Notes: generated by a model not told the origin, from the letters alone. A stretch of 64,000 nucleotides of DNA from Algoriphagus confluentis (GCF_036245625.1 NZ_BTPD01000004.1:1-64000); one strand, 5' to 3'. Counted from the first letter of the stretch, positions 1,975-50,484 are shown. Numbers and translations are program-made.

Positions 1975-2240
1975 TGAATACGAAATTAACCTTGACACTC
2001 GAAAAAGAGGTAATCGAAAAAGCTAAAGAATTTGCAGCCCAACAGGGACAGAGTCTTTCTTCCTTAGTGGAAAATTATTTCAAGCTACTCACCTTTGAGC
2101 ATAAAGAAGAGCCCAAGAAAAAAGAAAGAAAGCCACTTCCAGAAAGCTTCTTAAAGTTAAAAGGCTGCCTAAAGCATGAAGGAGAGTTCAACTACAAGGA
2201 AGAACTGACCAAGGCTTTGGAGGAAAAATATGGACTCTAG
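1974..2240 (+). CDS. Type II antitoxin (partner of the PIN toxin)
   Basis: 88 aa, MNTKLTLTLEKEVIEKAKEFAAQQGQSLSSLVENYF. It overlaps the downstream PIN gene by 11 nt. A paralogue exists at 27231-27476. Confidence 0.6.
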   Translation: MNTKLTLTLEKEVIEKAKEFAAQQGQSLSSLVENYFKLLTFEHKEEPKKKERKPLPESFLKLKGCLKHEGEFNYKEELTKALEEKYGL

Positions 2241-2649
2241 TTACTTTTTAGATTCGGATGTCATTCTTGATTTTCTGCTGAATAGAGATCCTTTTAATTT
2301 TTCAGCTGATGAAATTTTTGAAATGGCAGTTAATAAGGAAATCCAGATTTATTTTTCATCTCTGACAGTAGCCAACATCCATTACCTCCTTCGAAAACAG
2401 TACGGAAATGATATCGCACTTGATAAAATTTCAGAATTGTTGAGCTTCTGTAAAATTCTGCCCGTCTCGGAAAGAGAAATATTTGCGGCGATGAAAAGTG
2501 GTTTCTCTGATTTTGAAGATGCTATCCAGCATTTTACAGCGATCCAAAATCCAGCTATTGAAGGAATTATAACCCGAAATTTAGCGGATTACCGAAAAGC
2601 ACAGCTTCCTGTCTTTACGCCTGAAGTCTTTCTTTCGACTTTCAAATAA
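2230..2649 (+). CDS. PIN-domain toxin (VapC-like)
   Basis: 139 aa with acidic residues in PIN positions: FLDSDVILDFL, DFEDAIQ and ITRNLADY. It is coupled to the upstream antitoxin. Confidence 0.6.
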   Translation: MDSSYFLDSDVILDFLLNRDPFNFSADEIFEMAVNKEIQIYFSSLTVANIHYLLRKQYGNDIALDKISELLSFCKILPVSEREIFAAMKSGFSDFEDAIQHFTAIQNPAIEGIITRNLADYRKAQLPVFTPEVFLSTFK

Positions 2650-2722
2650 AATCCACCAAAGTCTTTGCTTCTCGAGGTTTGCAACCTCGAGAACTTATCA
2701 CAGGATTTGTAATCCTAAATTC
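2646..2722. repeat. REP-like palindromic unit at the 3' flank of the RAYT gene
   Basis: AAATAAAATCCACCAAAGT followed by hairpin CTCGAGGTTTGCAACCTCGAG and hairpin AGGATTTGTAATCCT. The same unit type recurs at 3258-3608. Confidence 0.65.
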
Positions 2723-2726
2723 ATTT

Positions 2727-3257
2727 TCATCCAAAAACTTCCAATTCCAGAGGACCTTTTCTAACGCCGAACGCATCTCCTGCACTGCTTAGAAGATAGT
2801 CTTCAGGGTTTTCAACAATTCCTGCCCGAACCGGATTTTCATGAATGTATTTGGCTTTTGATTCAAAAAATGACAGGGAATAAATTTCTTCTCCATGGTA
2901 GCCCTTTTCCCAAAACCAAATTTGATTTTCAAAAGTCAATGTCATTTTTAGCAATTTTTTCCTGCTCTCTTGGGGATTTTCATCAATGGCCTTATGAATT
3001 TTCTTAGCAGTAAACTTTCTCAAATCTCGAATTACATCAGAAAGATTATCATTTTTCGCTCTTACTATCAAATGCGCATGATTACTCATGATTATCCAAG
3101 CGAAAATTTCCAATCCTTTGTTTTCTTGGCAGTATCTTAAGCTGTCTAGCAAAATTTCAGAGTAAACTTTTCTAGTAAAAACATCTACCCATTGATGAAC
3201 AGTAAATGTCACAAAGTGTACAGCTCCTTGGTCGCGAATTACATATTCTTTCCCCAT
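2727..3257 (-). CDS. REP-associated tyrosine transposase (RAYT, IS200-like Y1 HUH transposase)
   Basis: 176 aa with an HUH motif MSNHAHLIV and a downstream catalytic Tyr region KAKYIHENPVRAG. It is flanked on both sides by palindromic REP-like repeats. Confidence 0.7.
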   Translation of the reverse strand: MGKEYVIRDQGAVHFVTFTVHQWVDVFTRKVYSEILLDSLRYCQENKGLEIFAWIIMSNHAHLIVRAKNDNLSDVIRDLRKFTAKKIHKAIDENPQESRKKLLKMTLTFENQIWFWEKGYHGEEIYSLSFFESKAKYIHENPVRAGIVENPEDYLLSSAGDAFGVRKGPLELEVFG

Positions 3258-3608
3258 AAAAATTAGTGAGTATCAAAAATCTGAAGGCAATACTTTGAAA
3301 TTACAAAATTTAAGAATCAACTGCTTCTCGAGGTTTGAAACCTCGAGAACTTATCTCAGGATTTGCAATCCTACATTCCCGAACTCAATAGATTGAAAAT
3401 CTGAAGATAGGACCTCGAAATTACAAATTTCGAGGAGCTTAAATAAAATCCACCAAGGTATCTTGCTTCTCGAGGTTTGAAACCTCGAGAACTTATCATA
3501 GAATTTGTAATCCCATATTTCTGAACTCATATAGATTAAAAATCTGAGGATAAGACCTCGAAATTGCAAATTTCGAGGAGCTTAGTTAGGTTTAAATAAA
3601 ATCCACCA
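3258..3608. repeat. Tandem array of about 2.5 REP-like units (period about 147 bp)
   Basis: Units begin near 3275, 3398 and 3540. Each contains the perfect palindrome CTCGAGGTTTGAAACCTCGAG, the hairpin AGGATTTGCAATCCT / ATTTGTAATCC, and the hairpin GACCTCGAAATTACAAATTTCGAGGAGC, then AAATAAAATCCACCAAGGT. The last unit abuts the murF stop. Confidence 0.7.
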
Positions 3609-4887
3609 AGGTCTCTAACTTCATCCCACGGCTACCTTTGATCAAAATGAGGTAATCTTCCAGCTTGCTGTCTTCAAGCCAATTTCTGAACGAAAACGGA
3701 TCTGGGAAATACAAAGCCTTGGGCGCTTTTTCCAGTGCGGAGACAATCAACTTTCCGGTAAAACAAACCTTGTCAATAGGATACTCGCTTACAATTTCAC
3801 CCAGCTTTCGGTGCTCTGCCTCGGCATGTTCCCCAAGCTCAAACATGTCTCCCAGAATGATCATTTTATGCTTTTTCCCAGTCATTTGACCAAAAGTCCG
3901 AATGGCTACTTCCATGCTGGATGGATTAGCATTATAAGCGTCAAGGATGATAAGATTGCTGCGCTTTTCGATAAGCTGGGAGCGCATGTTTTCGGGTTTG
4001 TAATTGACAATTCCCTCCACAGCTTTATCCATAGGCACTCCAAAATACTTCCCGATGGTCAACGCATTGGCGATATTCCCAAAATTATAAGCTCCGATCA
4101 GCGAGGTCAAATGCTCTCCATCGACTCCTTCTACCGAAAACTTTACAAAAGGATTAGCACCGAGAAACTGAACTTCACAGAAATCTCCTTTCGAAGGATA
4201 GAGCACTGGATTTTCAAACCGCTTGATCATATTGGAAAGGATCGGATCTTGGGTGTTGATAAATACCGTTCCCTTATGTTCTCTCAAGTGTTGATAAAGT
4301 TCTGTTTTGGTTTTGAGCACACCTTCGGGACCGCCCATTCCTTCCAAGTGTGCCTTACCAATATTGGTAATAAAGCCATGGGTCGGTTCTGCTATGTCGC
4401 AGAGCTCCTTGATGTCGCCCTGTTTATTAGCCCCCATTTCGATGATGGCGATTTCATGCTCGGACTTTAATCGGAGTAACGTCAAAGGCACTCCGATGTG
4501 ATTATTGAGATTGCCAATAGTAGCCAGCGTATTGAATTTTTGCTTCAAAACCGCATGCAAAAGTTCCTTAGAAGTGGTTTTCCCGTTGGAGCCGGTCAAT
4601 CCGATCACCGGAATGGCAAATTTTCGGCGATGATGCGTAGCCAGATTTTGCAACGTGGTCAATACATCCTCACAGATAAAATAGCGCTCATCGTCCTCCA
4701 CAAAATAGTTCACCTCATCGATCATCACAGCAGAAGCTCCCATTTCCAGGGCTTTGGCAGCAAACTCATTGGCATTGAAATTCGGTCCCTTAAGTGCAAA
4801 AAAGAGATTACCCGGATCAATTTTGCGGGTATCGGTACTTACGCCTGTACTTTTCAAAAAGAGTTGGTAAAGGATGTCGAGGTTCAT
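3592..4887 (-). CDS. murF: UDP-N-acetylmuramoyl-tripeptide--D-alanyl-D-alanine ligase
   Basis: Mur ligase motifs GLTGSNGKTT and the DAYNANP region are present. The start was chosen at MNLDILYQLF (the track ORF extends 19 codons further upstream). Confidence 0.8.
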   Translation of the reverse strand: MNLDILYQLFLKSTGVSTDTRKIDPGNLFFALKGPNFNANEFAAKALEMGASAVMIDEVNYFVEDDERYFICEDVLTTLQNLATHHRRKFAIPVIGLTGSNGKTTSKELLHAVLKQKFNTLATIGNLNNHIGVPLTLLRLKSEHEIAIIEMGANKQGDIKELCDIAEPTHGFITNIGKAHLEGMGGPEGVLKTKTELYQHLREHKGTVFINTQDPILSNMIKRFENPVLYPSKGDFCEVQFLGANPFVKFSVEGVDGEHLTSLIGAYNFGNIANALTIGKYFGVPMDKAVEGIVNYKPENMRSQLIEKRSNLIILDAYNANPSSMEVAIRTFGQMTGKKHKMIILGDMFELGEHAEAEHRKLGEIVSEYPIDKVCFTGKLIVSALEKAPKALYFPDPFSFRNWLEDSKLEDYLILIKGSRGMKLETLVDFI

Positions 4888-36256: not shown

Positions 36257-36426
36257 ATGGTGGTTTTTTCAAAGCTAAAACTAGAAGTATTCTGAAGTCG
36301 GTCGTCAAAATATCCATAAATGGCTAATAAAACAGAATTTTCTTTGAGTACCTATTGATGCTAGAGCAAGGGATCAGAACAAACGATAGATTTTGTGTAA
36401 ATTTCCTTTCCACCAACCCACCGATC

Positions 36427-38154
36427 ATGAAAAATTTACTTGGCCTTTTTCTGCTACACTTACTTTTGGGAGCTTGTCAGCCCTCAACCGACTCCCCAGT
36501 CTCTGTTTTTATAGAAGAATCTCTCCAGGAGGACCTGAAAGACGGTCGGTTACTTCTAATTTTTTCTACCAACCATGAAGCTGAACCGAGATTCGGAATC
36601 AGTGACAATGTGGGGACAAATCAGGTTTTTGGGATGGACTTTGAAAACTATCAGGCGGGGGAATCCTTGGTTTTTGACCCTGAGAGCTTTGGATACCCAA
36701 TCGAAAGCTTGGCAGATATTCCAGAGGGAGAATACACCGTTCAGGCTTTCATCCAGAAATACGAGACCTTTACCCGATCAGACGGCCATGTGGTCAAGCT
36801 ACCCATGGATCAAGGGGAAGGCAGGCAATGGGCCCGAGCTCCAAAAAATATCTACTCCACTCCCAAAAAAATCACTTGGGAAAAAGGAGCTGAGCTTTCC
36901 CTGACCTTGGACCAGATCATCCCTTCAGTCACCGAACCGGAAGACACCCCATACATCAAGCATATCAAAATCAAATCAGAGAAATTGTCTGAATTTTGGG
37001 GGAGGGATATGTATTTGGGTGCCCATGTCTTGCTTCCTGAAGGATTTGAAGAAAATCCAAATCAGTATTATCCCCTGATGATTTATCACGGGCACTTCCC
37101 ATCTGACTTTGGAGGATTCCGTACAAGCCCACCAGATCCCAACTTGGGAGAGGATGACTACAGCGCGAGATTCGGCATTTATGGGTATGAGAAAATGCAA
37201 CAGCAAGAGGCTTATGATTTCTACCAGCAATGGATTTCTCCCGACTTCAAGCGATTCCTAGTGATCGAAATCCAGCATGCCAACCCATACTACGATGACA
37301 GCTATGCCGTGAATTCGGCCAATTTGGGTCCCTATGGCGATGCAATCACCTACGAGCTCATTCCTTATATCGAGAAGGAGTTTCGGGGAATCGGAGAAGG
37401 ATGGGCCCGGTTTCTTTATGGAGGATCTACGGGCGGCTGGGAGGCATTGGCTGTGCAGGTTTTTTATCCGGATGAATATAATGGGTGCTTTGCCGCATGT
37501 CCAGACCCGATTGATTTCAGAGCCTACACATCCATCAACCTCTATGAGGACAAAAATGCCTATTTCAAAGAGGGAAATTTCAGAAAGACCCCACGTCCAG
37601 GACACCGGAATTACCTGGGGCATGTCAATGCCATGGTCATAGATATGAACCACCGAGAGCTGGCATTGGGAGGAGAAAAAAGCCGGTCCGGAGATCAGTT
37701 TGACATTTGGCAGGCGGTCTACTCCCCTGTAGGAGAAGATGGGTATCCCAAGCCAATCTGGGATAAATACACCGGAGAGATCGACTCAGAGGTAGCAGCA
37801 TATTGGAGAGAAAACTTCGATCTGAGGTACATCATGGAGAGAGATTGGGCTACGCTTGGACCCAAACTGGAAGGAAAAATCAGGATTTATTGCGGGGATA
37901 TGGACAATTACTATCTCAACAATGCAGTGTACCTTACCGAAGAATTTTTAGAAAAAACCGAGAACCCTTTTTACGCTGGAGAGGTTGCTTATGGTGATCG
38001 GGCTGAGCATTGCTGGAACGGAGATCCCAATCTACCCAACTACATCACCAGACTTCGGTACAATACCATGTATTTGGATAAAATTGCCGAACGACTTCAG
38101 CAAACAGCCCCACCTTCTTTTAATCAAAACAACTGGACACTAACCAAAAACTAA
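36427..38154 (+). CDS. Alpha/beta-hydrolase (esterase-like) lipoprotein
   Basis: Lipoprotein signal LLLGAC and a GxSxG-type nucleophile elbow FLYGGSTGGWEA. Overall esterase-like. Start chosen at MKNLLG. Confidence 0.45.
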   Translation: MKNLLGLFLLHLLLGACQPSTDSPVSVFIEESLQEDLKDGRLLLIFSTNHEAEPRFGISDNVGTNQVFGMDFENYQAGESLVFDPESFGYPIESLADIPEGEYTVQAFIQKYETFTRSDGHVVKLPMDQGEGRQWARAPKNIYSTPKKITWEKGAELSLTLDQIIPSVTEPEDTPYIKHIKIKSEKLSEFWGRDMYLGAHVLLPEGFEENPNQYYPLMIYHGHFPSDFGGFRTSPPDPNLGEDDYSARFGIYGYEKMQQQEAYDFYQQWISPDFKRFLVIEIQHANPYYDDSYAVNSANLGPYGDAITYELIPYIEKEFRGIGEGWARFLYGGSTGGWEALAVQVFYPDEYNGCFAACPDPIDFRAYTSINLYEDKNAYFKEGNFRKTPRPGHRNYLGHVNAMVIDMNHRELALGGEKSRSGDQFDIWQAVYSPVGEDGYPKPIWDKYTGEIDSEVAAYWRENFDLRYIMERDWATLGPKLEGKIRIYCGDMDNYYLNNAVYLTEEFLEKTENPFYAGEVAYGDRAEHCWNGDPNLPNYITRLRYNTMYLDKIAERLQQTAPPSFNQNNWTLTKN

Positions 38155-38157
38155 ACA

Positions 38158-39048
38158 ATGAAAACCAAATTTAAATCAGGAATTCTTTTAGCAAGCGCCA
38201 TCTTATTGTTTGCTCAATGCTCTTCTCCCAAAACAGAAAGCTCCGAAGAAATGGCTACCGAGGAAAGCACAGCTATGAAAACACCAAGCCTTACTCTCCT
38301 TTGGGAAACTCCCGCAGAACTGATCACCAATGAATCGGTCCTTTTTGACCCATCAAGCGGCAACCTGTATGTGTCCACTATCGGAGGAATGGATCCCTTG
38401 GAAAAAGACGGCAAAGGTTCGATAGCGATCGTTTCTACGGCTGGAGAAATCCTCAACCCTGCTTGGGTGACGGGATTGAATGCCCCAAAAGGCATGGCTA
38501 TTTCTGAGGGAAAACTTTACGTAACCGACATCGATGAATTTGTAGAAATCGATATTGCTTCCGCTACAATTTCAAACAAATGGAAAGTTGAGGGAGCGCA
38601 GTTTCTTAACGACGTGGCTGCCCACAACGGAACCGTTTACTTTACGGACATGAATACGGGTAAGGTCCATACCTATGCAGAAGGTAGTATCTCCACTATT
38701 TCCGAAGGAAATTCCTCAATAAACGGGATAGCAGTAGCCAATGACGGGACCATTTATGGATTGGATGCCTCTGGACTGAAAAAATGGAATGCTGATGGCA
38801 CCACTACGATTGTGAACTCTACGGTAACCGGCGGAGATGGCTTGATTATTTTGGGAGACGGCAATTTTGTAGCTTCTAGATGGCAGGGAGAAATTTGGTT
38901 TGCCTCAGCAGACGGAGAGACCAATATGCTTGACACCAAAGCCGCAGAGTCCAATACCGCAGATATCGGATATAACCCAGCCGAAAAGGTGGTATACGTG
39001 CCTACCTTCTTCAAAAATAAAGTAGCGGCCTACAAGCTCGATTACTAA
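38158..39048 (+). CDS. Beta-propeller (SMP-30/gluconolactonase/NHL-like) lipoprotein
   Basis: Lipoprotein signal LLFAQCSS and repeated LYVTD / VYFTDMNTGKV / IYGLD blade-like motifs. Confidence 0.4.
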   Translation: MKTKFKSGILLASAILLFAQCSSPKTESSEEMATEESTAMKTPSLTLLWETPAELITNESVLFDPSSGNLYVSTIGGMDPLEKDGKGSIAIVSTAGEILNPAWVTGLNAPKGMAISEGKLYVTDIDEFVEIDIASATISNKWKVEGAQFLNDVAAHNGTVYFTDMNTGKVHTYAEGSISTISEGNSSINGIAVANDGTIYGLDASGLKKWNADGTTTIVNSTVTGGDGLIILGDGNFVASRWQGEIWFASADGETNMLDTKAAESNTADIGYNPAEKVVYVPTFFKNKVAAYKLDY

Positions 39049-41618: not shown

Positions 41619-43145
41619 ATGAATCCACACAAAATCGATTCGATCGCGCTCGAGTTATTGAAACTCTCAGACTATCAGGAACTGAAAAAAGCTATGGTTT
41701 CTTCCTATCGGTCCATGCCGGACGCCTATTGGAAAGAAGCCCAGATTGAGACCCTGATTTCAAAATTTCCGGAAGGTCAGGTAGTGATCAAAATCAACGG
41801 TTTCTTGGCAGGATGTGCGCTTTCCATTATCGTCCATGAAGATCTCTTGGAAGGGGAACATACCTATGTGGATGTGACGGAGAATTTCACCTTTGACTCC
41901 CATGCAGACGATGGAGATCTTTTGTACGGGATTGATGTATTCATCAAACCGGAATTCAGAGGGCTTAGACTTGGCAGGAGATTGTATGACTACCGCAAGG
42001 AACTCTGTGAAAAATTGAATCTGAAAGGAATTGTATTTGGAGGGAGGATTCCCAATTATCACCGATATTCAGATCAAATGAGCCCCAAAGAATACCTGGA
42101 AAAGGTGCGAATGAAAGAAATCTACGACCCGGTTTTAAACTTTCAATTGGCCAATGATTTTCACCCGAGCAGAATTCTCACCAACTACTTGGAAGGAGAT
42201 AAAGCTTCGAAAGAATTTGCGGTGATGCTGGAATGGAATAATGTGTATTACGAAAAACCTTCCAAAAAGCCTCTTCCCAACAAAACCATTGTCCGGCTTG
42301 GGTTGATACAATGGCAAATGAGACTCTATGAAAACCTTGATGAGCTCATGCAGCAGGCAGAATATTTTATCGATGCAGTATCTGGCTATCGGTCTGATTT
42401 TGCCTTATTTCCCGAGCTTTTCAATGCCCCCCTCATGGCTGAGTTCAATCACCTTTCGGAAGCCGATGCCGTAAGAGGGCTTGCCAAGTTTACTGACGAG
42501 ATTCGGGATAGATTTTCCAAATTGTCCGTAGCCTATAATATCAATATCGTCACCGGTTCTATGCCAAAAATGATTGAAAACAAGCTTTTCAATGTAGGTT
42601 ATCTCTGCAAACGGGACGGAACCGTAGAGCACTACGAAAAGCTGCACGTCACCCCTTTGGAATCCAGAGTTTGGGGCATGCAGGGAGGGAGTCAACTCAT
42701 GGCATTTGATACCGATTGCGGAAAAATCGGCATTCTGATTTGCTATGATGCGGAATTCCCCGAGCTGTCCAGAATCCTGGCTGAGCAGGGAATGGACATT
42801 TTATTTATCCCTTTCCTGACCGATACACAAAACGGATATTCCCGGGTGAGGCACTGTGCTATGGCGAGAGCAATAGAAAATGAATGCTATGTAGCGATGG
42901 CGGGAAGTGTGGGCAACCTTCCCAAAGTCCACAACATGGACATGCAATATGCTCAGTCCATGGTGATTACACCCTGCGACTTCCCCTTTCCGAGCAATGG
43001 AATCAAAGCAGAGGCTACCCCCAATACCGAAATGACCTTGATCGCGGATGTAGACCTTTCTCTCCTTCGTGAACTTAACGAATTTGGAAGTGTTAGAAAT
43101 CTTAAAGACAGGAGAAAAGACCTCTTTGAACTCAGAAAAAAGTAA
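41619..43145 (+). CDS. Bifunctional GNAT acetyltransferase / carbon-nitrogen hydrolase (nitrilase-superfamily) protein
   Basis: N-terminal GNAT-like region (FIKPEFRGLRLGRRL) and a C-terminal CN-hydrolase region with catalytic-Cys context GILICYDAEFPE. Confidence 0.65.
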   Translation: MNPHKIDSIALELLKLSDYQELKKAMVSSYRSMPDAYWKEAQIETLISKFPEGQVVIKINGFLAGCALSIIVHEDLLEGEHTYVDVTENFTFDSHADDGDLLYGIDVFIKPEFRGLRLGRRLYDYRKELCEKLNLKGIVFGGRIPNYHRYSDQMSPKEYLEKVRMKEIYDPVLNFQLANDFHPSRILTNYLEGDKASKEFAVMLEWNNVYYEKPSKKPLPNKTIVRLGLIQWQMRLYENLDELMQQAEYFIDAVSGYRSDFALFPELFNAPLMAEFNHLSEADAVRGLAKFTDEIRDRFSKLSVAYNINIVTGSMPKMIENKLFNVGYLCKRDGTVEHYEKLHVTPLESRVWGMQGGSQLMAFDTDCGKIGILICYDAEFPELSRILAEQGMDILFIPFLTDTQNGYSRVRHCAMARAIENECYVAMAGSVGNLPKVHNMDMQYAQSMVITPCDFPFPSNGIKAEATPNTEMTLIADVDLSLLRELNEFGSVRNLKDRRKDLFELRKK

Positions 43146-43165: not shown

Positions 43166-44008
43166 ATGAAAATCATAAAGAAAACTCACAAAGCGGAATA
43201 CAGGCCCATTGACGATTTGGTCACTTACAGCCCAATGCCCACCCGTTCACTCTCTATGATTGACCCGTTTTTATTTCTGAATCACCACGGATTCCAAACG
43301 TATCCTTCACCAAATCAAGGATTGCCCTTTGGTCCCCATCCACACAGGGGCATGGAAACCGTGACTTTCATTTTAGAAGGCGATATCATGCACTCAGATT
43401 CCACAGGTAAAAACTCAGTCATTGGACCTGGGGGTGTACAGTACATGACCGCAGGCAAAGGGCTGATTCATGCAGAAGTCTCGAGTCCGGAGTTTAAGCG
43501 TAAAGGCGGAGATTTGGAAATTCTTCAGCTTTGGCTGAATCTTCCTGCCTCCAAAAAAATGATTGCCCCGAATTACATCGGTCTTCAAAAAGAGGATATC
43601 CCCGCATTCGAACTGGACAAAGGAAAGGTTCGAGTTCAGCAGTTGTTTGGAGAGTGGAACGGAGTAAAGGGAGCTTTTGAAGGAAATTTCCCGATCCAAA
43701 TGAGCACGATCTATTTAGACAAGGGTGGAAAATTCGAAAAGTCCATTCCCGCCTCAGAAAATGTGTTTTTCTATATCGTCAGGGGAGAGCTTAAAGTAAA
43801 TGGCGAGGGCCTACACATGAGGCATTTAATTGAATTTGCCAATTCTGGGGAAAAAATAGAGGTGGAAGCTTTGGAGGAGTCAATCTTGATTTTGGGTCAT
43901 GCCTTGCCTTTCAACGAGCCTGTAGTAGCTCAGGGGCCTTTTGTGATGAATACCCAACAGCAGATTTACGAAGCTTATCAAGATTACCAAGCTGGAGGGT
44001 TTGCTTGA
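43166..44008 (+). CDS. Pirin-family cupin protein
   Basis: HPHRGMETVTFILEG metal-binding motif and a bicupin-sized 280 aa. Confidence 0.8.
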   Translation: MKIIKKTHKAEYRPIDDLVTYSPMPTRSLSMIDPFLFLNHHGFQTYPSPNQGLPFGPHPHRGMETVTFILEGDIMHSDSTGKNSVIGPGGVQYMTAGKGLIHAEVSSPEFKRKGGDLEILQLWLNLPASKKMIAPNYIGLQKEDIPAFELDKGKVRVQQLFGEWNGVKGAFEGNFPIQMSTIYLDKGGKFEKSIPASENVFFYIVRGELKVNGEGLHMRHLIEFANSGEKIEVEALEESILILGHALPFNEPVVAQGPFVMNTQQQIYEAYQDYQAGGFA

Positions 44009-44332
44009 TCAATTCAGTTGATTATCTGACCTGATTTTCTCAGCCTGATCCAGACCATCCTGCAATCTCCTCAGAGATTCAATGGATTGTCTGGATTTTT
44101 CTTGATCAATGGTCAGCTCCAATCCACATCCGTGGCAAAGCACAGGCTCATAATTGATCAAAGATGCAATGCTGATGACTAGTTTGGTACCGCATTCCGG
44201 GCAGGAAAGCCCCGGCTGACGCGCTACTTCTACGATTGGAGTTTTTTCCGGCTCAGCAGGTTGGGACTCCTTTTTCCCTATCCCAAACCAGCTTAGAATC
44301 CGGTCTTTGAAGGTGACAATCCAATTGGCCAT
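44009..44332 (-). CDS. Small zinc-ribbon protein, 4th gene of the unknown operon
   Basis: 107 aa with CPECG-N20-CHGCG, i.e. two CxxC pairs. Its start overlaps the upstream gene's stop (TAATG). Its stop abuts the pirin stop (TGATCA). Confidence 0.5.
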   Translation of the reverse strand: MANWIVTFKDRILSWFGIGKKESQPAEPEKTPIVEVARQPGLSCPECGTKLVISIASLINYEPVLCHGCGLELTIDQEKSRQSIESLRRLQDGLDQAEKIRSDNQLN

Positions 44333-44874
44333 TAGGTCTCTTTGTTTGCGTTATCCAAAATATTCAGCAGTTGAACCATTCCGATGGCAGGTTCGGCCTG
44401 GGCCAGTCTGATTTTGACATTCATATTTGCTGTGGCAGCTTGGGTGGTATTGGGCTGATTTGGGGTGGGCTTTTTCCCGAATATCCCCTTCAACCTTAAG
44501 GCACTGGTATCGCCGATAAATTTATTCCCAATGGAACCTCCGCTTTTGGGAACGCTTGCAGATTGGTCCGGCTGGGAAAGGGCTAAGTCAAACTCGATCT
44601 CTGCCTCAGCTACTTTTAAGGAGGGGATGGGAATGATAGTCAATAAGGGAACGGCTATTTTGGCAGTTTTGGATGAACCGTCAGCCTCCACTTTTTGATA
44701 AGAGAAAATGATATTTCTTACCTCCCCAAAGTCCTCCTCACTGGATGTGGAAGTCTTGGAAAAACCCACTTCCTGAATGAATTCAGCAGTCGCTTTGGCT
44801 GCAATCGCCTCTGCCTGAACTACCGCAGCCAAAGGTGCTCCTAAAAGGTCAGAAATGTATCTGGGAGTGATCAT
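44332..44874 (-). CDS. Unknown-function protein, paralogue of 46077-46766 (possibly DUF2589-like)
   Basis: 180 aa. LLGAPLAAVVQAEAIAAKATAEFIQEVGF...FGEVRNIIFSY...IAVPLLTIIPIPSLKVAEAEIEFDLAL aligns position-by-position with the first gene of the operon. Confidence 0.5.
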   Translation of the reverse strand: MITPRYISDLLGAPLAAVVQAEAIAAKATAEFIQEVGFSKTSTSSEEDFGEVRNIIFSYQKVEADGSSKTAKIAVPLLTIIPIPSLKVAEAEIEFDLALSQPDQSASVPKSGGSIGNKFIGDTSALRLKGIFGKKPTPNQPNTTQAATANMNVKIRLAQAEPAIGMVQLLNILDNANKET

Positions 44875-44885
44875 CGTTTTTTGGA

Positions 44886-46040
44886 TTAAAGAATGGAAGT
44901 TTTGTTTTCGTCATCAAGGAGAGTAAAATCCTGTGATCCAAGCGTAAACCTGATGGTAGCGATACTTTCGGGCTTGGCCTTGCTGATTGCTTCGCTATCC
45001 ACTGAGACCTGCATCTTGGTCACCACATTATCGGAAAGGATCTTGCTTGCACTACTTTCAAATAATGGCATTTTCTTGGCCAAGACTCGCTCTGCTAATC
45101 GGGCCATGGTCAGATCTTCTTCAAAATCATCTTTTGGATTAGGGGCGGGGGTATTTCCCGGACGTTTGGATGCAGAGGCACCGCTCATCCAGATTGGCTT
45201 TATTCCTGTAGCCTTATTTAGTGCGGCTGCCTTTTCTGAAACCGATTTATCAAAAAAGGCCTTTGAAGCTCCAGTCCCTATTTTTTGGGAAGATGCGCTG
45301 ATCTCTACTTCCTTATTCCCAACCTTCACTTTCGCAATTTCAGATTTACTTTCGGTGTCTTTTTTGGTCACTCCCACTTCCACCTTTCCTTTTTTCAAAG
45401 ATTCTGAGAATAGCTTGGCTTCAGCGAGTGCTTTTCCGCTATCCTCAAACCTCTCATTGATTACAAACTCTGCTTGTCCTTTTTTATCCAAGCCAATTAC
45501 CTGAAATTCACCCGTTTCTAGAGGAATTACAGCCAGAGAGGAGTTTTTCTGAACGACAGGAAATAAGGGTTGCAGATTTTTTGTGAAGGAATCCTTAACC
45601 AAAGCAGTCATTTTTATTGGATCATTGGTTTTGATTCCCTCCAAAAGGGTATCCTCGATTTGTTCAGAAAGGGATTTTTCCCATTCCTCTGAGGGATAGG
45701 AACTACCCAGCCCCTTGTATAACTCATTGGTTTGGGTCAGATTCTTAAGCTGAGATTTGATTTCAGCCGCGGTTTCTTTTGAAAAAACTGCTGCCAAATC
45801 AGCAAGTCTTTGCTTGGAAAGAGCTGGATTGGCGGGCTTTTCTTCTACACCGGTGACGGCGTATTTGATTTCCACTTCCAGATGTTGAATTCCTATCCTA
45901 GGGACAGGAAAATACCTAAGAATCTGATCTGAAGCATAGGCTTTGGCTATTTCTCTGGATGCCTCATCGGCCTTGGATTTGGCCTCATTGATATCGCTGA
46001 GTATAGACGCAATTATTCCATTTAACTGGCTCATAGTCAA
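44886..46040 (-). CDS. Unknown-function protein (384 aa) sharing the N-terminal module of its neighbours, with a Lys/Glu-rich central region
   Basis: IIASILSDINEAKSKADEASREIAKAYAS...YFPVPRIGIQHLEVEIKYAV parallels the helix and hPhP-beta motif of the flanking paralogues. The central region is K/E-rich, of repeat-like low complexity. Confidence 0.45.
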   Translation of the reverse strand: MTMSQLNGIIASILSDINEAKSKADEASREIAKAYASDQILRYFPVPRIGIQHLEVEIKYAVTGVEEKPANPALSKQRLADLAAVFSKETAAEIKSQLKNLTQTNELYKGLGSSYPSEEWEKSLSEQIEDTLLEGIKTNDPIKMTALVKDSFTKNLQPLFPVVQKNSSLAVIPLETGEFQVIGLDKKGQAEFVINERFEDSGKALAEAKLFSESLKKGKVEVGVTKKDTESKSEIAKVKVGNKEVEISASSQKIGTGASKAFFDKSVSEKAAALNKATGIKPIWMSGASASKRPGNTPAPNPKDDFEEDLTMARLAERVLAKKMPLFESSASKILSDNVVTKMQVSVDSEAISKAKPESIATIRFTLGSQDFTLLDDENKTSIL

Positions 46041-46076
46041 GTAGAGGTTTGAAATTAAAAATAGAAGGAGGATGGA

Positions 46077-46766
46077 TTAACCCCCTCCTCCCCCACCACT
46101 AGCTGGTTTTTCCAAAATAGCCTGTTCCATGATATCCAATACTTTGGCGAGACCGGCAGGCATTTCGTCCTGAACAGCCTTCACCTGAATATCCATGGTA
46201 TATTGAGTGGAAGTATTGACTTTGTTGCTCTGATGACTGCTCCAATTGTTTCGTGTAGACACTTTGGCATTGAGATTAAACTTTACCGGAGAGAAGAATC
46301 CGCCTGCCTTGAAGCTCATTGTCGTATCTGTTGCGACACTAGCACTGCTGGCACTTCCACTTTTATACTCTTGCTGCTCAGTGATGTTGGCTGTAAACTG
46401 GATAGTCATCTCCTGAATCCGGATAAAAGGAATCGGTACAATGGTAAGAATTGGTACAGTCAAAGTTACCGTTTCTTCTCCTGCGTCATTCCCGCCTGCG
46501 CTTCCTCCTGCAGTCTTTCTGGAATAGCGGAAAGTAACATTACGTACGTCACCAAGGGTTTCGTCTTGGTCGCCGTTTTGCTCTTCTGGAGCTGACTTAA
46601 AACCTACCTCTTTGATGAAGTTCACAGTGGATTTCGCGGCGAGGCCTTGGGATTGAATGGCCGCTACCATGGGGCCCCCTATGATTCTGCCAAAAGGCAG
46701 GGAGCGAAGGGTTCGATTTACATAACTCATAATAAAATTATTTATGGTGGAAAAAAAGGAATTCAA
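46077..46766 (-). CDS. Unknown-function protein, paralogue of 44332-44874 (possibly DUF2589-like)
   Basis: 229 aa. IIGGPMVAAIQSQGLAAKSTVNFIKEVGF...LGDVRNVTFRY...LTVPILTIVPIPFIRIQEMTIQFTANI, a Gly/Ser-rich linker and a C-terminal GGGGGG tail. Confidence 0.5.
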   Translation of the reverse strand: MNSFFSTINNFIMSYVNRTLRSLPFGRIIGGPMVAAIQSQGLAAKSTVNFIKEVGFKSAPEEQNGDQDETLGDVRNVTFRYSRKTAGGSAGGNDAGEETVTLTVPILTIVPIPFIRIQEMTIQFTANITEQQEYKSGSASSASVATDTTMSFKAGGFFSPVKFNLNAKVSTRNNWSSHQSNKVNTSTQYTMDIQVKAVQDEMPAGLAKVLDIMEQAILEKPASGGGGGG

Positions 46767-47034
46767 AAATCAGAGGTCCAATTGGACAAAATCGAATACT
46801 AAACGATTGAAAGTAAGGAATTTAAAATTGTAAAGTCAAGCAAAACCGAATTAAGAAAAACTTCTTGATGCTGATTTGATAGAATTTCACCTAGACAATC
46901 CCCAATTTTTACCAAATTTTATATGCCAAAAAAAAGAAAAAAGCAAAACCTTGCAACCCTCCTAAAATCTTACTTTCCTAAAGCAGACATCGGAAAAATG
47001 GAAGAGAAAATATGCTCCCATTTACCTTGGCTGA

Positions 47035-47811
47035 TTAGGAGGCGTCGATAATATCCTGAGAAATGAGCCGGTAGATTTCTGCGACTTGCTCATTATAATT
47101 CAAAAACTTGACGTGCTCCTCCAAGGTCTCATAATCCTCTCTTACTGCCGGACCCGTCTGTGCCTTTTTTGCTCCAATTTGCAGACTTTTAGAAATGGTT
47201 TCAATAATTAGAGGTTTGAGCATCTCAAAATCCAAACCCTGCCGTCTCATGATTTCCTCCGCTATTCTGATCATATGATTGGAAAAATTGCTGGCAAATA
47301 CAGCCGCTATATGCACTGCCTTCCGATCTTTAGAACGGACGTTAAATGTCAGAGGAGAAAGACTTTTTGCCAATTTTTTCAGCTTTTGGAGCACCTCTTC
47401 ATCCTCTGCTTCCAAAAGAAACGGGACCTCATCCATATCGATTTTTTTCCCTTTGGTAAATGACTGAAGAGGGTAAAAAATCCCCGTGAAACTGGCCGAA
47501 CTGTATCCCAAAATATCCAAGGGCATTGTACCGGAAGTATGGACAAGAATGCTTCCTTCAGGCAAAATAACCGCATCGGCTACTTCAGGAATGGCGGTAT
47601 CTTTGACTGCCAAAATGAAGATTTGTGCCTTACTTTCCGAAAAATCCAAATCGTCCTTGGGCTCTGCAGCATAAACCCGCTCAGTAATTTCCGTGGCTTT
47701 TGCCAACTCACGGGAATATACCTCAGTAATTTCATGCCCGGCATCTTCCAAGGCAGGAGCGAGTTGCCAAGCTACATTTCCTGCTCCTATCAGGGCTATT
47801 TTGAACTTCAT
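47035..47811 (-). CDS. Rossmann-fold NAD(P)-binding protein (DUF2520-like)
   Basis: N-terminal dinucleotide-binding motif IALIGAGNVA and 258 aa. Family name is from memory. Confidence 0.45.
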   Translation of the reverse strand: MKFKIALIGAGNVAWQLAPALEDAGHEITEVYSRELAKATEITERVYAAEPKDDLDFSESKAQIFILAVKDTAIPEVADAVILPEGSILVHTSGTMPLDILGYSSASFTGIFYPLQSFTKGKKIDMDEVPFLLEAEDEEVLQKLKKLAKSLSPLTFNVRSKDRKAVHIAAVFASNFSNHMIRIAEEIMRRQGLDFEMLKPLIIETISKSLQIGAKKAQTGPAVREDYETLEEHVKFLNYNEQVAEIYRLISQDIIDAS

Positions 47812-47880: not shown

Positions 47881-50484
47881 TCATTGATCCAATGCCACGT
47901 TTTTTTGGTTAAAATGAAATCTCCCTGAAACTGGCTCGCCCAATGCATTGACTCCATTGACAACAACCCAAAATGCTTCGACATCTTCTGGTAGCTTGAA
48001 CTGAACCGAAGTGGAGGTCTGATTAGGTGAAATTTTGACACTTGGGTTCCAAAATATAGTGGAGCTAATATCTGAGGCCAAAATCTCAAAATCAACCTTC
48101 TCGTTGTCTAGTCCCCATAGATCATATTCCTTAAAAGGATGGGAATTCTCTTTGGCAAGCTGAATCCCATCTTTCAGAATAATATTTATTGCACCAAATT
48201 CACCCGCCTCGCCTAATGCCACGACGACTGTCGGAATCACTTCTATCCGATCGATATTGAACACATTGATCATAGACAAAGCCTTATACTGATTCTCTGA
48301 ATCATATCCAACCAAAGTAGATCCAGAGGTAGAAGTAATTGGCGAACCATTTACTAATATCTGGGGAGGCCCTAAAGAAGAACCTCTCCTGTTGAGTATA
48401 ATTGGCGGATTTCCTGCAACCCTAAAGCCCGCCACTCGATTGACAAAGGCATACATAAACTGCCTGGTATCACCAGATAAATAAATCCCATCCATTTCAA
48501 GGACTTTATGCGGTTTGCCATAGGGCATCCGATAAAGAGGGTTTTCTTTCACATCATCGACGACTACTTCTTCCAAGAGAATTTCGCCCGCTCTCATCTT
48601 CATATACTCCCTTCTCAGCGAATCTATATAGGGTAGAGAATTAGAAATCATTTTCGTTTTGGGAAAATGGATTTTTGAAAAATCCACTTGATTAGGTGAA
48701 GACACGTAGGTGATATCGATATTTTTCAGTTGATCACCATTGAAGTTGCGGCCCTTTACAGCGAGAGAAAACTTTCCTTCAAATTGCAATTTCTCCAGAT
48801 AAAAATTCCCAAATAAATCTGTACTTAATTCCCTTCTATCCAAAAAACCATTCACTAATACTTCCAACTTGGATCTATCCACAAACGCAGTCGAGTCACT
48901 CACTTTTCCTTTTAGAATAAATCCATACTCCTTGTCCAATTTGAACCTTTCCAAATCAAAAGCGGGGGATTTCCTCTCAATTTTTAAAAATTCCACAAAG
49001 GAATTCAATTCAGAATTCTGCAAAATCAGAGCATCATCTTTAAGGATTGAGACAGAAAGATTGCCACCAATGACTTGGCCATTCACTCCATTTAACATGA
49101 AGTTTAGCTTCACTGAATCTTGGGCTTGGTAAATTTCCTTATCTGTAAATGCTGAGATTCCTTTTCCATAAGTACCTGATAGATCTGTATCTTTTTGCCA
49201 ATTGGCAGTCAATACTTGAATAGGTTTGACATATTCAGACCCCAATCCATAATTTGATCCCCAAAGGGTATATGCTTTTACTACAAAATCTCTGGTATCT
49301 AACTCAGGTCCCAAATTGATTTTGCCTTCGGCCATGCCATTTTTCAAGGAAAAAATCTTGTGAATTTTCGAATTTCCTAAGGTATCCAGAATTTCTACAT
49401 GGAGAATTTTGCTTGATTCAGCCACCATCAACGGATTCCCGAAGATCATGAAGGCTTTGAAATATAAATTATCCCCGATTAGGTAAATATCTCTGTCAGT
49501 ATGTAAAAAAACACTCTCTTTTAAGTTTTCGACAGTAGGATCCAATTGAGCCAAGGTCTGTGTTTGCTCATAATTAAAATCATCAGGAAGGAACAGTAAG
49601 GGATTTTGGAAACTTTCATTTTTGGCGTTTACCAAATCACGATTCACGGGTACACCATTTGCTCGAATCAGGATTTCTGTATCTCCTACATCAAACCCAG
49701 TATTTATCTTTCCTGGATTCTTGATTTTGAAAAAAAATTCTCCTTTCGTGTTGGTCGAACTTAGCGTAACTTGGTCTGGCTCTTCAGATATGAGTCTCCT
49801 GATTTTATAGACCGGAGACTTTTCATACAGGGCTACTCGCTTTTCTTGCTGTAACTTACTTTCCTCAGCTGAATTGGGACTAATTTCAAGGTAGGCAATT
49901 GCAATATCAGCTGAATTCCATTCACTTTTTAAAAGAATAGGATTTCTTAGCCACATAGAAATCAAATAGGAGCTTTCCAGGTTTTGGATCAAGATCATTT
50001 CCCTAGCATATACCCAGGTTTGTTTATCCTTTTCAATAAACTCCAGAACTTCTGGGTTTACCAAAATGATTTCTTCTTCACTTGAGGCTCCCCTGACCAG
50101 CATTCGACGGAAGGCTTCTAAATTCCTTTTATGTGTAGCAAATTTTATTTTTTGACTTGGGACAGTTTGTAAATCAGTTTCCAACAAAATTTGAATCGGA
50201 AAAATGGATTGTTCGGGATAGCCCACCACGACATCTATTTCCTTAAGTAAAAAGCCTTCTTTTCCTACCATTAACTTCCACGAGCCAAAAGGAACTCCAG
50301 CTAGAGTGAAACTTCCCGTACTATCCGTAAATGACTGGTAACTTGTGCCCGGAATAAAAACTTGACTTTGGAAAATAGCCTGATCAGACTCCAGAGTGCT
50401 GACCACTCCTTTGACCACTCCGGTCTGCGCCCATAAGCCAAAACTGGTCCCCAGCACTAACGAGAAAAATAATAAAACTTTCAT
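47881..50484 (-). CDS. Carboxypeptidase-regulatory-like domain protein with a C-terminal TonB-plug-like domain (no obvious barrel)
   Basis: Signal peptide, GVVKGVVSTLESDQAIFQSQVFIPGTSYQSFTDSTGSFTL (CarbopepD_reg-like), and a C-terminal ...ILVNGSPI...INVFNIDRIEVIP plug-like region. Confidence 0.5.
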   Translation of the reverse strand: MKVLLFFSLVLGTSFGLWAQTGVVKGVVSTLESDQAIFQSQVFIPGTSYQSFTDSTGSFTLAGVPFGSWKLMVGKEGFLLKEIDVVVGYPEQSIFPIQILLETDLQTVPSQKIKFATHKRNLEAFRRMLVRGASSEEEIILVNPEVLEFIEKDKQTWVYAREMILIQNLESSYLISMWLRNPILLKSEWNSADIAIAYLEISPNSAEESKLQQEKRVALYEKSPVYKIRRLISEEPDQVTLSSTNTKGEFFFKIKNPGKINTGFDVGDTEILIRANGVPVNRDLVNAKNESFQNPLLFLPDDFNYEQTQTLAQLDPTVENLKESVFLHTDRDIYLIGDNLYFKAFMIFGNPLMVAESSKILHVEILDTLGNSKIHKIFSLKNGMAEGKINLGPELDTRDFVVKAYTLWGSNYGLGSEYVKPIQVLTANWQKDTDLSGTYGKGISAFTDKEIYQAQDSVKLNFMLNGVNGQVIGGNLSVSILKDDALILQNSELNSFVEFLKIERKSPAFDLERFKLDKEYGFILKGKVSDSTAFVDRSKLEVLVNGFLDRRELSTDLFGNFYLEKLQFEGKFSLAVKGRNFNGDQLKNIDITYVSSPNQVDFSKIHFPKTKMISNSLPYIDSLRREYMKMRAGEILLEEVVVDDVKENPLYRMPYGKPHKVLEMDGIYLSGDTRQFMYAFVNRVAGFRVAGNPPIILNRRGSSLGPPQILVNGSPITSTSGSTLVGYDSENQYKALSMINVFNIDRIEVIPTVVVALGEAGEFGAINIILKDGIQLAKENSHPFKEYDLWGLDNEKVDFEILASDISSTIFWNPSVKISPNQTSTSVQFKLPEDVEAFWVVVNGVNALGEPVSGRFHFNQKNVALDQ

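Follow-up and report, generated by a model that had tools for sequence, protein, structure and literature searches.

Holin-endolysin cassettes and type 10 secretion systems co-encode small non-enzymatic proteins and modular peptidoglycan hydrolases devoid of signal peptides, and typical endolysins combine PG_binding_1, LysM or SH3 domains with M23, amidase, lytic-transglycosylase-like or M74-type peptidase domains. A similar association is seen in several lineages for relatives of a four-gene operon, D1-M-D2-Z, which occupies positions 44009-46766 of a 64,000-nucleotide stretch of the Algoriphagus confluentis genome (NZ_BTPD01000004.1:1-64000, hereafter the window). The analysis shows that this operon represents a conserved, self-contained and non-enzymatic module, which consists of two old DUF2589 paralogs (D1 and D2), an AF_0414 protein (M) and either a zinc-ribbon or a winged-helix partner. 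DUF2589 and AF_0414 are sequence catalogs of unknown function, and neither a function, a structure, the D-M-D-Z operon nor the hydrolase link was found in a literature search. DUF2589 is mentioned there in two papers only, and in both in passing: a transcriptome paper reported that the DUF2589-related genes AF0414-AF0417 of Archaeoglobus fulgidus are up-regulated on lactate, and a DUF2589 gene of Bacteroides fragilis appears in a list of genes differentially expressed after meropenem exposure. Searches for PF11655, PF27375 and AF0415-0417 returned nothing further, although a description elsewhere is possible. An earlier note on this DNA, made from the sequence, had supposed that such a module was undescribed, which agrees with the literature searched. 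The genes of the operon are as follows.

46077..46730, minus strand: gene 1 (D1), DUF2589 protein, 217 amino acids (aa) from ATG
44886..46034, minus strand: gene 2 (M), AF_0414 (PF27375) protein, 382 aa from ATG
44332..44874, minus strand: gene 3 (D2), second DUF2589 paralog, 180 aa
44009-44332, minus strand: gene 4 (Z), predicted zinc-ribbon protein, 107 aa

Conservation of the D1-M-D2 module

The module was surveyed with one genome per species, and the best 79 loci of 309 relatives were kept. These loci belong to more than 12 phyla, namely Bacteroidota, Ignavibacteriota, Verrucomicrobiota, Pseudomonadota, Nitrospinota, Actinomycetota, Chloroflexota, Cyanobacteriota, Armatimonadota, Gemmatimonadota, Planctomycetota, Acidobacteriota and SAR324. 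According to a tally of open reading frames (ORFs) and hidden Markov model (HMM) matches, the D-M-D core is present in 71 of the 79 loci, with D2 downstream of M in every case, and the remaining eight are mostly explained by contig ends or ORF-calling problems, L079 excepted. The loci of three distant D1 homologs also have the D-M-D order followed by a small fourth gene. Intergenic gaps in module loci are typically 0-40 nucleotides (nt), or the genes overlap. The fourth gene encodes a zinc ribbon in 50 loci, a winged-helix protein (X) in 19 and neither of them in two.

The recurrence of one gene order in so many phyla puts the arrangement far beyond chance. The earlier note had proposed that the four-gene order be looked for beyond Bacteroidota, and that a lack of conserved synteny would point to lineage-specific duplicates. 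The order is kept far beyond Bacteroidota, and the operon is therefore a functional module. The possibility that these are lineage-specific duplicated genes without a joint function, with which the restriction of a word-indexed search with gene 2 to Cyclobacteriaceae would agree, is thus refuted by the synteny; it is also contradicted by the 787 M-family representative clusters found in an exhaustive HMMER search (E ≤ 1e-3) and by the conservation of all four proteins at the protein level.

D1 homologs match the window D1 at 82-98% identity in the genus and at 43-59% in other phyla, and since identities of 24-57% were obtained for M, 24-74% for D2 and 29-64% for Z, D1 is the most constrained subunit of the module. 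Since D1 proteins of foreign phyla are closer to the window D1 than is its own paralog D2 (28% identity by BLASTP, E 2e-21), the duplication is old, having taken place before the module spread, and neither copy has been lost.

Several loci deviate from the basic plan by additional genes. Six to seven D copies were counted in the tally for L054 and L075. The latter, from a Dysgonomonadaceae metagenome-assembled genome (MAG), carries seven DUF2589 paralogs around one M and one Z (L075:5781-13424), several of which have long C-terminal extensions (Big_2; a leucine-rich region), and the Microscillaceae MAG locus contains three M and five D genes (L054:806-8118). As well, four loci have a further gene, whose products are about 200-225 aa long and form a single family.

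L042:1214-1885, L052:2699-3355, L054:2342-2950 and L071:7710-8354: extra gene between D1 and M

Linked peptidoglycan enzymes

Of about 57 loci outside Cyclobacteriaceae, 13 have a gene for a peptidoglycan enzyme a short way downstream in the same orientation. In nine of these loci it directly follows the module, often overlapping, and in four Actinomycetota loci it comes after the winged-helix gene. Two Desulfobacteraceae loci (L004 and L005), known from an earlier look-up outside the 57-locus scan, carry a gene of the same kind that combines a zincin and LysM. The most common Pfam families among close neighbors are all related to peptidoglycan, namely PG_binding_1 (six proteins), Peptidase_M23 (three) and Peptidase_M74 (three), and LysM, CHAP and Amidase_2 also occur. 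The linked enzymes are listed below, where the YkuD-like, transglycosylase-like and L038 assignments are motifs read by eye and not HMM matches.

L051, L056, L071: M23 peptidase
L041, L062: PG_binding_1 with a YkuD-like HxnSxGC domain
L052: LysM with a lytic-transglycosylase-like domain, then Amidase_2 with SH3
L076: lytic-transglycosylase-like protein
L058, L066, L072, L077: PG_binding_1 with M74
L038: PG-binding-like domain with a Cys/His peptidase-like domain
L004, L005, L045: zincin with LysM

An N-terminal hydrophobic segment is present in none of the linked hydrolases; over their first 60 residues, hydropathy in 19-residue stretches does not exceed 0.96. By our own unmeasured estimate, peptidoglycan enzymes make up about 1% of bacterial genes, and on the basis of this assumed background their occurrence in 13 of 57 loci at one fixed position amounts to a more than 20-fold excess. 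As read by eye, the two clearest M23 neighbors, those of L051 and L071, have a non-catalytic N-terminal region in common, to which that of L056 is only weakly alike. No other candidate gene for membrane passage is recurrent in the hydrolase-linked operons. The translationally coupled signal-less hydrolases and the alternative winged-helix protein at the fourth position are the strongest two clues, and neither was foreseen in the earlier note.

In three of these loci from two phyla, the hydrolase gene is followed by a gene for a protein of 460-600 aa without a signal peptide (L051:5011-6819, L076:4524-6335 and L056:10281-11669). The two that were scanned individually, those of L051 and L076, contain immunoglobulin (Ig) domains of the ASH/HYDIN/Cep192 type in Pfam.

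Proteins of the module

Signal peptides, clear transmembrane helices and enzyme domains are absent from all four operon proteins. Over 19 residues, the maximum Kyte-Doolittle values are 1.76 for D1 (in a Pro-rich strand motif), 0.85 for M, 1.55 for D2 and 1.32 for Z, and a helical hydrophobic segment is absent. The view of the earlier note that nothing in these proteins indicates an enzyme is borne out by Pfam and NCBIfam, in which none of the four matches an enzyme family.

Gene 1 matches PF11655 over profile positions 1-153 of 154 (E 2.5e-30, 106.3 bits) and gene 3 over positions 2-153 (E 1.8e-21, 77.5 bits). DUF2589 membership is given by a full-length match above the gathering score of 23 bits, and by this measure the two are clear DUF2589 paralogs. 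The likeness to DUF2589 that the earlier note proposed is therefore right for genes 1 and 3, whereas gene 2 has no DUF2589 match in Pfam. Its description of three paralogs needs the same division, since gene 2 is related through its N-terminal ~70 residues only, and this is visible with diverse profiles. Two of its motifs were also interchanged, as IAVPLLTIIPIPSLKVAEAEIEF belongs to gene 3 (180 aa) and FPVPRIGIQHLEVEIKY to gene 2 (384 aa in the longer ORF), whereas the Gly/Ser stretch and GGGGGG tail of gene 1 were read correctly. A word-indexed search with D1 gave 1,384 DUF2589 matches, and the family signature is a hydrophobic Pro-rich motif.

46395..46457, minus strand: hydrophobic Pro-rich motif of D1, VPILTIVPIPFIRIQEMTIQF

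Residues V92, P93, L95, P99, P101 and F112 of this motif are invariant in 49 sequences. The motif is the most hydrophobic 19-residue stretch of D1, and a value of at least 1.6 is reached by 48 of 173 D proteins. The AlphaFold2 (AF2) model of D1, whose mean predicted local distance difference test score (pLDDT) of 65 is low, has six strands between an N-terminal helix of 30 residues and a C-terminal helix. Four of the strands, judged from the model together with the sequence, span 13-18 residues in which hydrophobic residues alternate with polar ones. Searches of the Protein Data Bank (PDB) with single sequences and profiles were empty or insignificant, and a convincing fold match was found neither in the PDB nor among viral models (Foldseek, BFVD), for which the best query-normalized TM-score (TMq) was at most 0.29. 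Some D paralogs carry C-terminal Ig-like domains (Big_2, 29.7 bits; Big_1/MG2 weaker), and the D protein P0169 ends in a CPHCG zinc-ribbon-like tail.

Membership of M in AF_0414 is based on precomputed annotation and on its position between two DUF2589 genes. A hypothetical protein of Algoriphagus confluentis (P0001), to which M is 100% identical, bears the precomputed PF27375.1 annotation, as do 48 of 49 homologs. No match was obtained with the local copies of Pfam (E ≤ 1) and NCBIfam, BLASTP of M against D1 or D2 showed no significant similarity, and hhalign of a Cyclobacteriaceae-only M profile against DUF2589 gave a probability of 0.3%. On these grounds, gene 2 was rejected as a plain DUF2589 protein. 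When diverse profiles were rebuilt from ORFs at 80 loci spanning many phyla, M and D cross-matched by HMM in both directions, and hhalign, run with 58 M and 80 D sequences of diverse origin, reached a probability of 94.4% (E 8.9e-8) over 71 columns. These columns comprise the N-terminal helix and PxP strand, and no significant alignment was obtained for the C-terminal halves. M is thus, as judged from these profiles, a remote DUF2589 relative through its N-terminal module alone.

45816..46034, minus strand: M N-terminal module, helix and FPVPRIGIQHLEVEIKY strand, remote homolog of the DUF2589 N-terminus (hhalign)
45216..45554, minus strand: M insert, two βββα repeats, predicted YegP/DUF1508-like fold, in long (~380 aa) M only

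The center of gene 2 had been taken for a K/E-rich low-complexity region. It is instead predicted to be folded, with pLDDT of about 80-90 over residues 70-270 in an AF2 model with a mean of 75. The likeness of the insert to YegP/DUF1508 was negative in a sequence test for DUF1508 (PF07411). Most M proteins are 230-300 aa long, and the YegP-like insert lies outside the conserved core, being confined to the ~380-aa forms. A DUF1508 (YegP) protein is encoded upstream of the module in the Desulfobacteraceae loci (L004:557-1461 and L005:2771-3675), which echoes the insert inside the Algoriphagus M. A small protein of ~100 aa with the C-terminal motif …LEKK.L..RKP…VxE is likewise encoded upstream in L004, L005, L040 (6606-7004) and L045 (6627-6959).

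The fourth protein carries CPECG…CHGCG, as the earlier reading of a CPxCG…CxxCG protein had it.

44123..44203, minus strand: Z zinc-ribbon core, C44-P-E-C47-G … C66-H-G-C69-G, read from the translation

The pattern PGLxCPECG…CxxCxLxLxxD is conserved among Z homologs. All matches to Pfam zinc-ribbon families were below cutoffs, and the NCBIfam family ECs_2282 scored 24.5 bits against a cutoff of 37; by its cysteine pattern, gene 4 is a generic four-cysteine zinc ribbon outside the named families. Its replacement X is about 165-210 aa long; the N-terminus is helical, and the C-terminal part is a winged helix according to MarR_2/IclR/HTH_20 matches. Downstream of the winged-helix gene there are also proteins of 190-245 aa without a Pfam match but with conserved His…Gly-Cys motifs, which could be cysteine peptidase-like enzymes.

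L047:9428-10081, L068:4045-5353, L067:9362-10084 and L040:10133-10849: His…Gly-Cys proteins

Proposed role and alternative explanations

Because both paralogs are retained, the N-terminal module is common to D and M, the genes are translationally coupled and one D protein carries a zinc-ribbon-like tail, we infer that D1, M and D2 would form an obligate heteromer. The hydrophobic PxP motif, the alternating long strands, the amphipathic N-termini and the cell-wall neighbors suggest the envelope or membrane of the cell as the probable site of action of this complex. In the mechanism proposed here, the three related N-terminal modules would pack into a D1:M:D2 heteromer of fixed stoichiometry, which would be placed at the inner face of the cytoplasmic membrane through the hydrophobic Pro-rich loop, the long amphipathic β-hairpins of D and the amphipathic N-termini, with Z or the winged-helix protein serving as an assembly or regulatory subunit. 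The most speculative step is that a controlled opening or loosening of the membrane might let cytoplasmic signal-less hydrolases reach the peptidoglycan, so that the module would be a functional analog of holins without holin homology. The preferred reading, a heteromeric, holin-like membrane-active module that lets signal-less hydrolases cross the cytoplasmic membrane, is advanced tentatively, as a possibility. A wider claim is more doubtful, namely that the three related soluble subunits and their zinc-ribbon or winged-helix partner constitute an unrecognized membrane-breaching or export device in many phyla, which is unrelated to holins or named secretion systems and moves signal-less hydrolases for autolysis, wall remodeling or release of contents. 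Since the window copy has no linked hydrolase, its wall-related role is extrapolated from other lineages, and the Algoriphagus module might work alone or with an enzyme encoded elsewhere.

Several points weigh against a holin-like role. About 75% of loci have no linked hydrolase, and in the window the operon has a pirin gene downstream, a DUF2520 gene upstream and no hydrolase next to it. The hydrophobic stretch of D1 is Pro-rich and may be plain buried core, a transmembrane helix not being predicted, and the alternating strands fit an ordinary two-layer α/β protein equally well. In addition, the archaeal member cannot service murein, and a fixed core gene among housekeeping genes is unusual for a lytic function, though compatible with it.

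An envelope-stress scaffold is nearly as likely as the holin-like module. As an analog of PspA/LiaH/Vipp1, D1-M-D2-Z would bind the inner face of the cytoplasmic membrane and stabilize or repair it under wall or membrane stress, protecting the membrane instead of opening it. Such a role is consistent with a non-enzymatic module that has amphipathic N-terminal helices and a hydrophobic loop, with the meropenem list of B. fragilis, with the regulation of the Archaeoglobus cluster by growth condition and with a vertically inherited core gene in a housekeeping setting in Algoriphagus, and the strong conservation of D1 would suit a scaffold that assembles itself. HisKA_3 two-component systems were found immediately upstream of the L088 module and in its vicinity in L087 and on a Fulvitalea plasmid; however, two-component systems are not among the recurrent neighbors in a survey of 146 proteins. 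Homology or fold similarity to the PspA/ESCRT-III family was not found, and a scaffold does not account for the translational coupling, seen in 13 lineages, between the module and endolysin-like hydrolases that have no signal. The shared N-terminal region of the M23 neighbors in L051 and L071, weakly present in L056, could also be read as the mark of a cytoplasmic holding or chaperone complex, which would keep cargo such as hydrolases until other factors release it, or of an assembly that polymerizes into particles. The Ig-like C-terminal domains on some D paralogs, as displayed on decorated assemblies, the six to seven D paralogs at L054 and L075 and the very high conservation of D1 point in the same direction. 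No similarity to capsid, sheath, tube, gas-vesicle or encapsulin proteins was found in PDB and BFVD, however, and the neighbor survey revealed no conserved ATPase or other assembly factor nearby, so that this explanation is rather unlikely.

The earlier note had also raised a defense module, and an anti-phage abortive-infection system, in which a sensor complex triggers membrane or wall damage on infection, would be compact, multi-gene and patchy across many phyla, as the module is. The variable enzyme at the last position resembles the swapping of effectors in defense systems, and a few defense neighbors occur (JetA, LmuA-like and Avs-like). Nevertheless, the suggestion fares poorly. The four proteins have no match in PADLOC-DB v2.0.0, a database from 2023 that does not cover newer defense systems, and only about five of 146 close neighbors from 53 diverse loci match PADLOC models, so that the defense islands the note had proposed to look for are not apparent. 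In the window, the neighbors are housekeeping genes (2-oxoacid dehydrogenase E2 and E3, DUF2520, pirin, CN-hydrolase, M20 peptidase and fatty-acid desaturase), and the flanking genes are the same ones in about 15-17 genomes of Algoriphagus and close relatives, in which the chromosomal position is kept and D1 is 82-98% identical. The module is carried by five of 72,556 plasmid records and by one of 50,697 phage records, the latter a 4-kb fragment. Setting, neighbors and scant carriage on phages and plasmids argue against a mobile defense system, and we regard a defense role as improbable.

The three- or four-gene module is thus kept in order in many phyla without an assigned function, a convincing structural analog or much literature. 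Endolysin-like enzymes that carry no export signal are coupled to it repeatedly, which poses the question by which route these enzymes get to the cell wall. If it is true that the module provides this route, it would represent a novel type of machinery for crossing the envelope, with a bearing on autolysis, the response to cell-wall antibiotics and protein release. If it is a stress scaffold instead, it would represent a new means of membrane protection, on a par with Psp.

Gene starts, operon edges and neighboring genes

Within 44009-46766, the ORF listing and a reading of the reverse strand reveal four consecutive, tightly coupled ORFs on the minus strand, in keeping with the genes of 229, 384, 180 and 107 aa described earlier. 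The ORFs stand, but for the first two, internal ATGs are more likely starts than TTG.

46077-46766, minus strand: ORF 1, 229 aa, TTG start
44886-46040, minus strand: ORF 2, 384 aa, TTG start
43166-44008, convergent to the operon: pirin gene (Pfam Pirin, Pirin_C)
47035-47811, upstream of the operon: DUF2520/Rossmann gene
46731..47034, minus strand: upstream intergenic region, presumed site of the operon promoter

The lengths of homologs fit the internal ATGs, with 217 aa for a protein 98% identical to gene 1 and 382 aa for one 100% identical to gene 2, and the TTG starts are probably not used. Because homologs begin at these ATGs, the genes would extend over 46077-46730 and 44886-46034, and the gap between them is likely 42 nt, not the 36 nt given before. 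The remaining junctions are as the earlier note described them: 11 nt separate genes 2 and 3, genes 3 and 4 share one base in TAATG, and the stop of gene 4 adjoins that of the convergent pirin gene to give TGATCA. At this junction (44006-44011) there are no intergenic bases between the two stops; any terminator must therefore be inside the opposite gene, and the convergent transcripts probably overlap.

No promoter was identified in 46731..47034, where a sigma-70-type scan with a tool that excludes Bacteroidota promoters gave six matches against 4.9 expected from shuffled sequence, and the counts of the promoter and terminator scan were not clearly above those of shuffled sequence. A hairpin (-25 kcal/mol, z -2.6) is present at 46040-46100, where a CCTCC-rich stretch pairs with the Gly6-tail codons of gene 1 (GGTGGGGGAGGAGGGGGT), which lie upstream of it; a T-rich run follows the hairpin. 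As a conserved attenuator between D1 and M it was rejected, since it is missing outside the closest relatives (L006). In most Algoriphagus loci (L008-L019), the gene 2 ATG lies within a 5-bp stem, TCAAC…GTTGA (46020-46045), which may reflect merely the conserved MSQLN codons.

Among the other genes of the window, 41619-43145 encodes a 508-aa protein with a C-terminal carbon-nitrogen hydrolase domain, whose N-terminal ~220 residues have no Pfam match (E ≤ 1e-5) and are acetyltransferase-like by eye. This gene adjoins the module in nine loci of Algoriphagus and close relatives, the window included. Two adjacent plus-strand ORFs, at 36355-38154 (599 aa) and 38158-39048 (296 aa), have no Pfam match at the same threshold. 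Moreover, G+C falls to about 0.38 at 2001-4000 and 48001-50000, compared with about 0.45 elsewhere in the window.

Comparison with known systems

Apart from the co-encoded signal-less hydrolases, the module differs from holin systems in several respects. Its core consists of three related soluble proteins of about 180-380 aa without a transmembrane helix, it is nearly absent from phage genomes, most of its loci have no linked hydrolase, and it has no relation to holins in sequence or fold. The window operon has neither a transmembrane helix nor a signal-less endolysin neighbor, the latter being present in 13 of about 57 loci outside Cyclobacteriaceae. The features of phage structural or lysis genes are also missing, as judged from the single phage record, from the BFVD comparison (TMq ≤ 0.29) and from PHROGs, in which genes 1-3 have no match and the operon proteins gave sub-threshold scores only.

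The PspA/LiaH/Vipp1 proteins resemble the module in being cytoplasmic and non-enzymatic, in probable membrane binding by amphipathic helices, and through the DUF2589 member in the meropenem list and the HisKA_3 system that is occasionally adjacent. However, the two are not homologous: the operon proteins have neither a PspA_IM30 HMM match nor a helical-hairpin fold, the D proteins are β-rich and not helical coiled coils, and the module comprises three paralogs and a zinc ribbon. β-Pore formers, such as bacterial gasdermins, Cyt toxins and leukocidins, share with D the lack of predicted transmembrane helices and the presence of long amphipathic β-hairpins rich in Ser, Thr and Asn. The stress-induced YegP/DUF1508 (UPF0339) domain differs in that no sequence-level match exists and the insert occurs only in long M.

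Because no known system matches it by sequence, fold or gene content, we regard the module as lying outside the known kinds. Both of its protein families were already cataloged as domains of unknown function, and what is considered new is the system, together with the function suggested for it.

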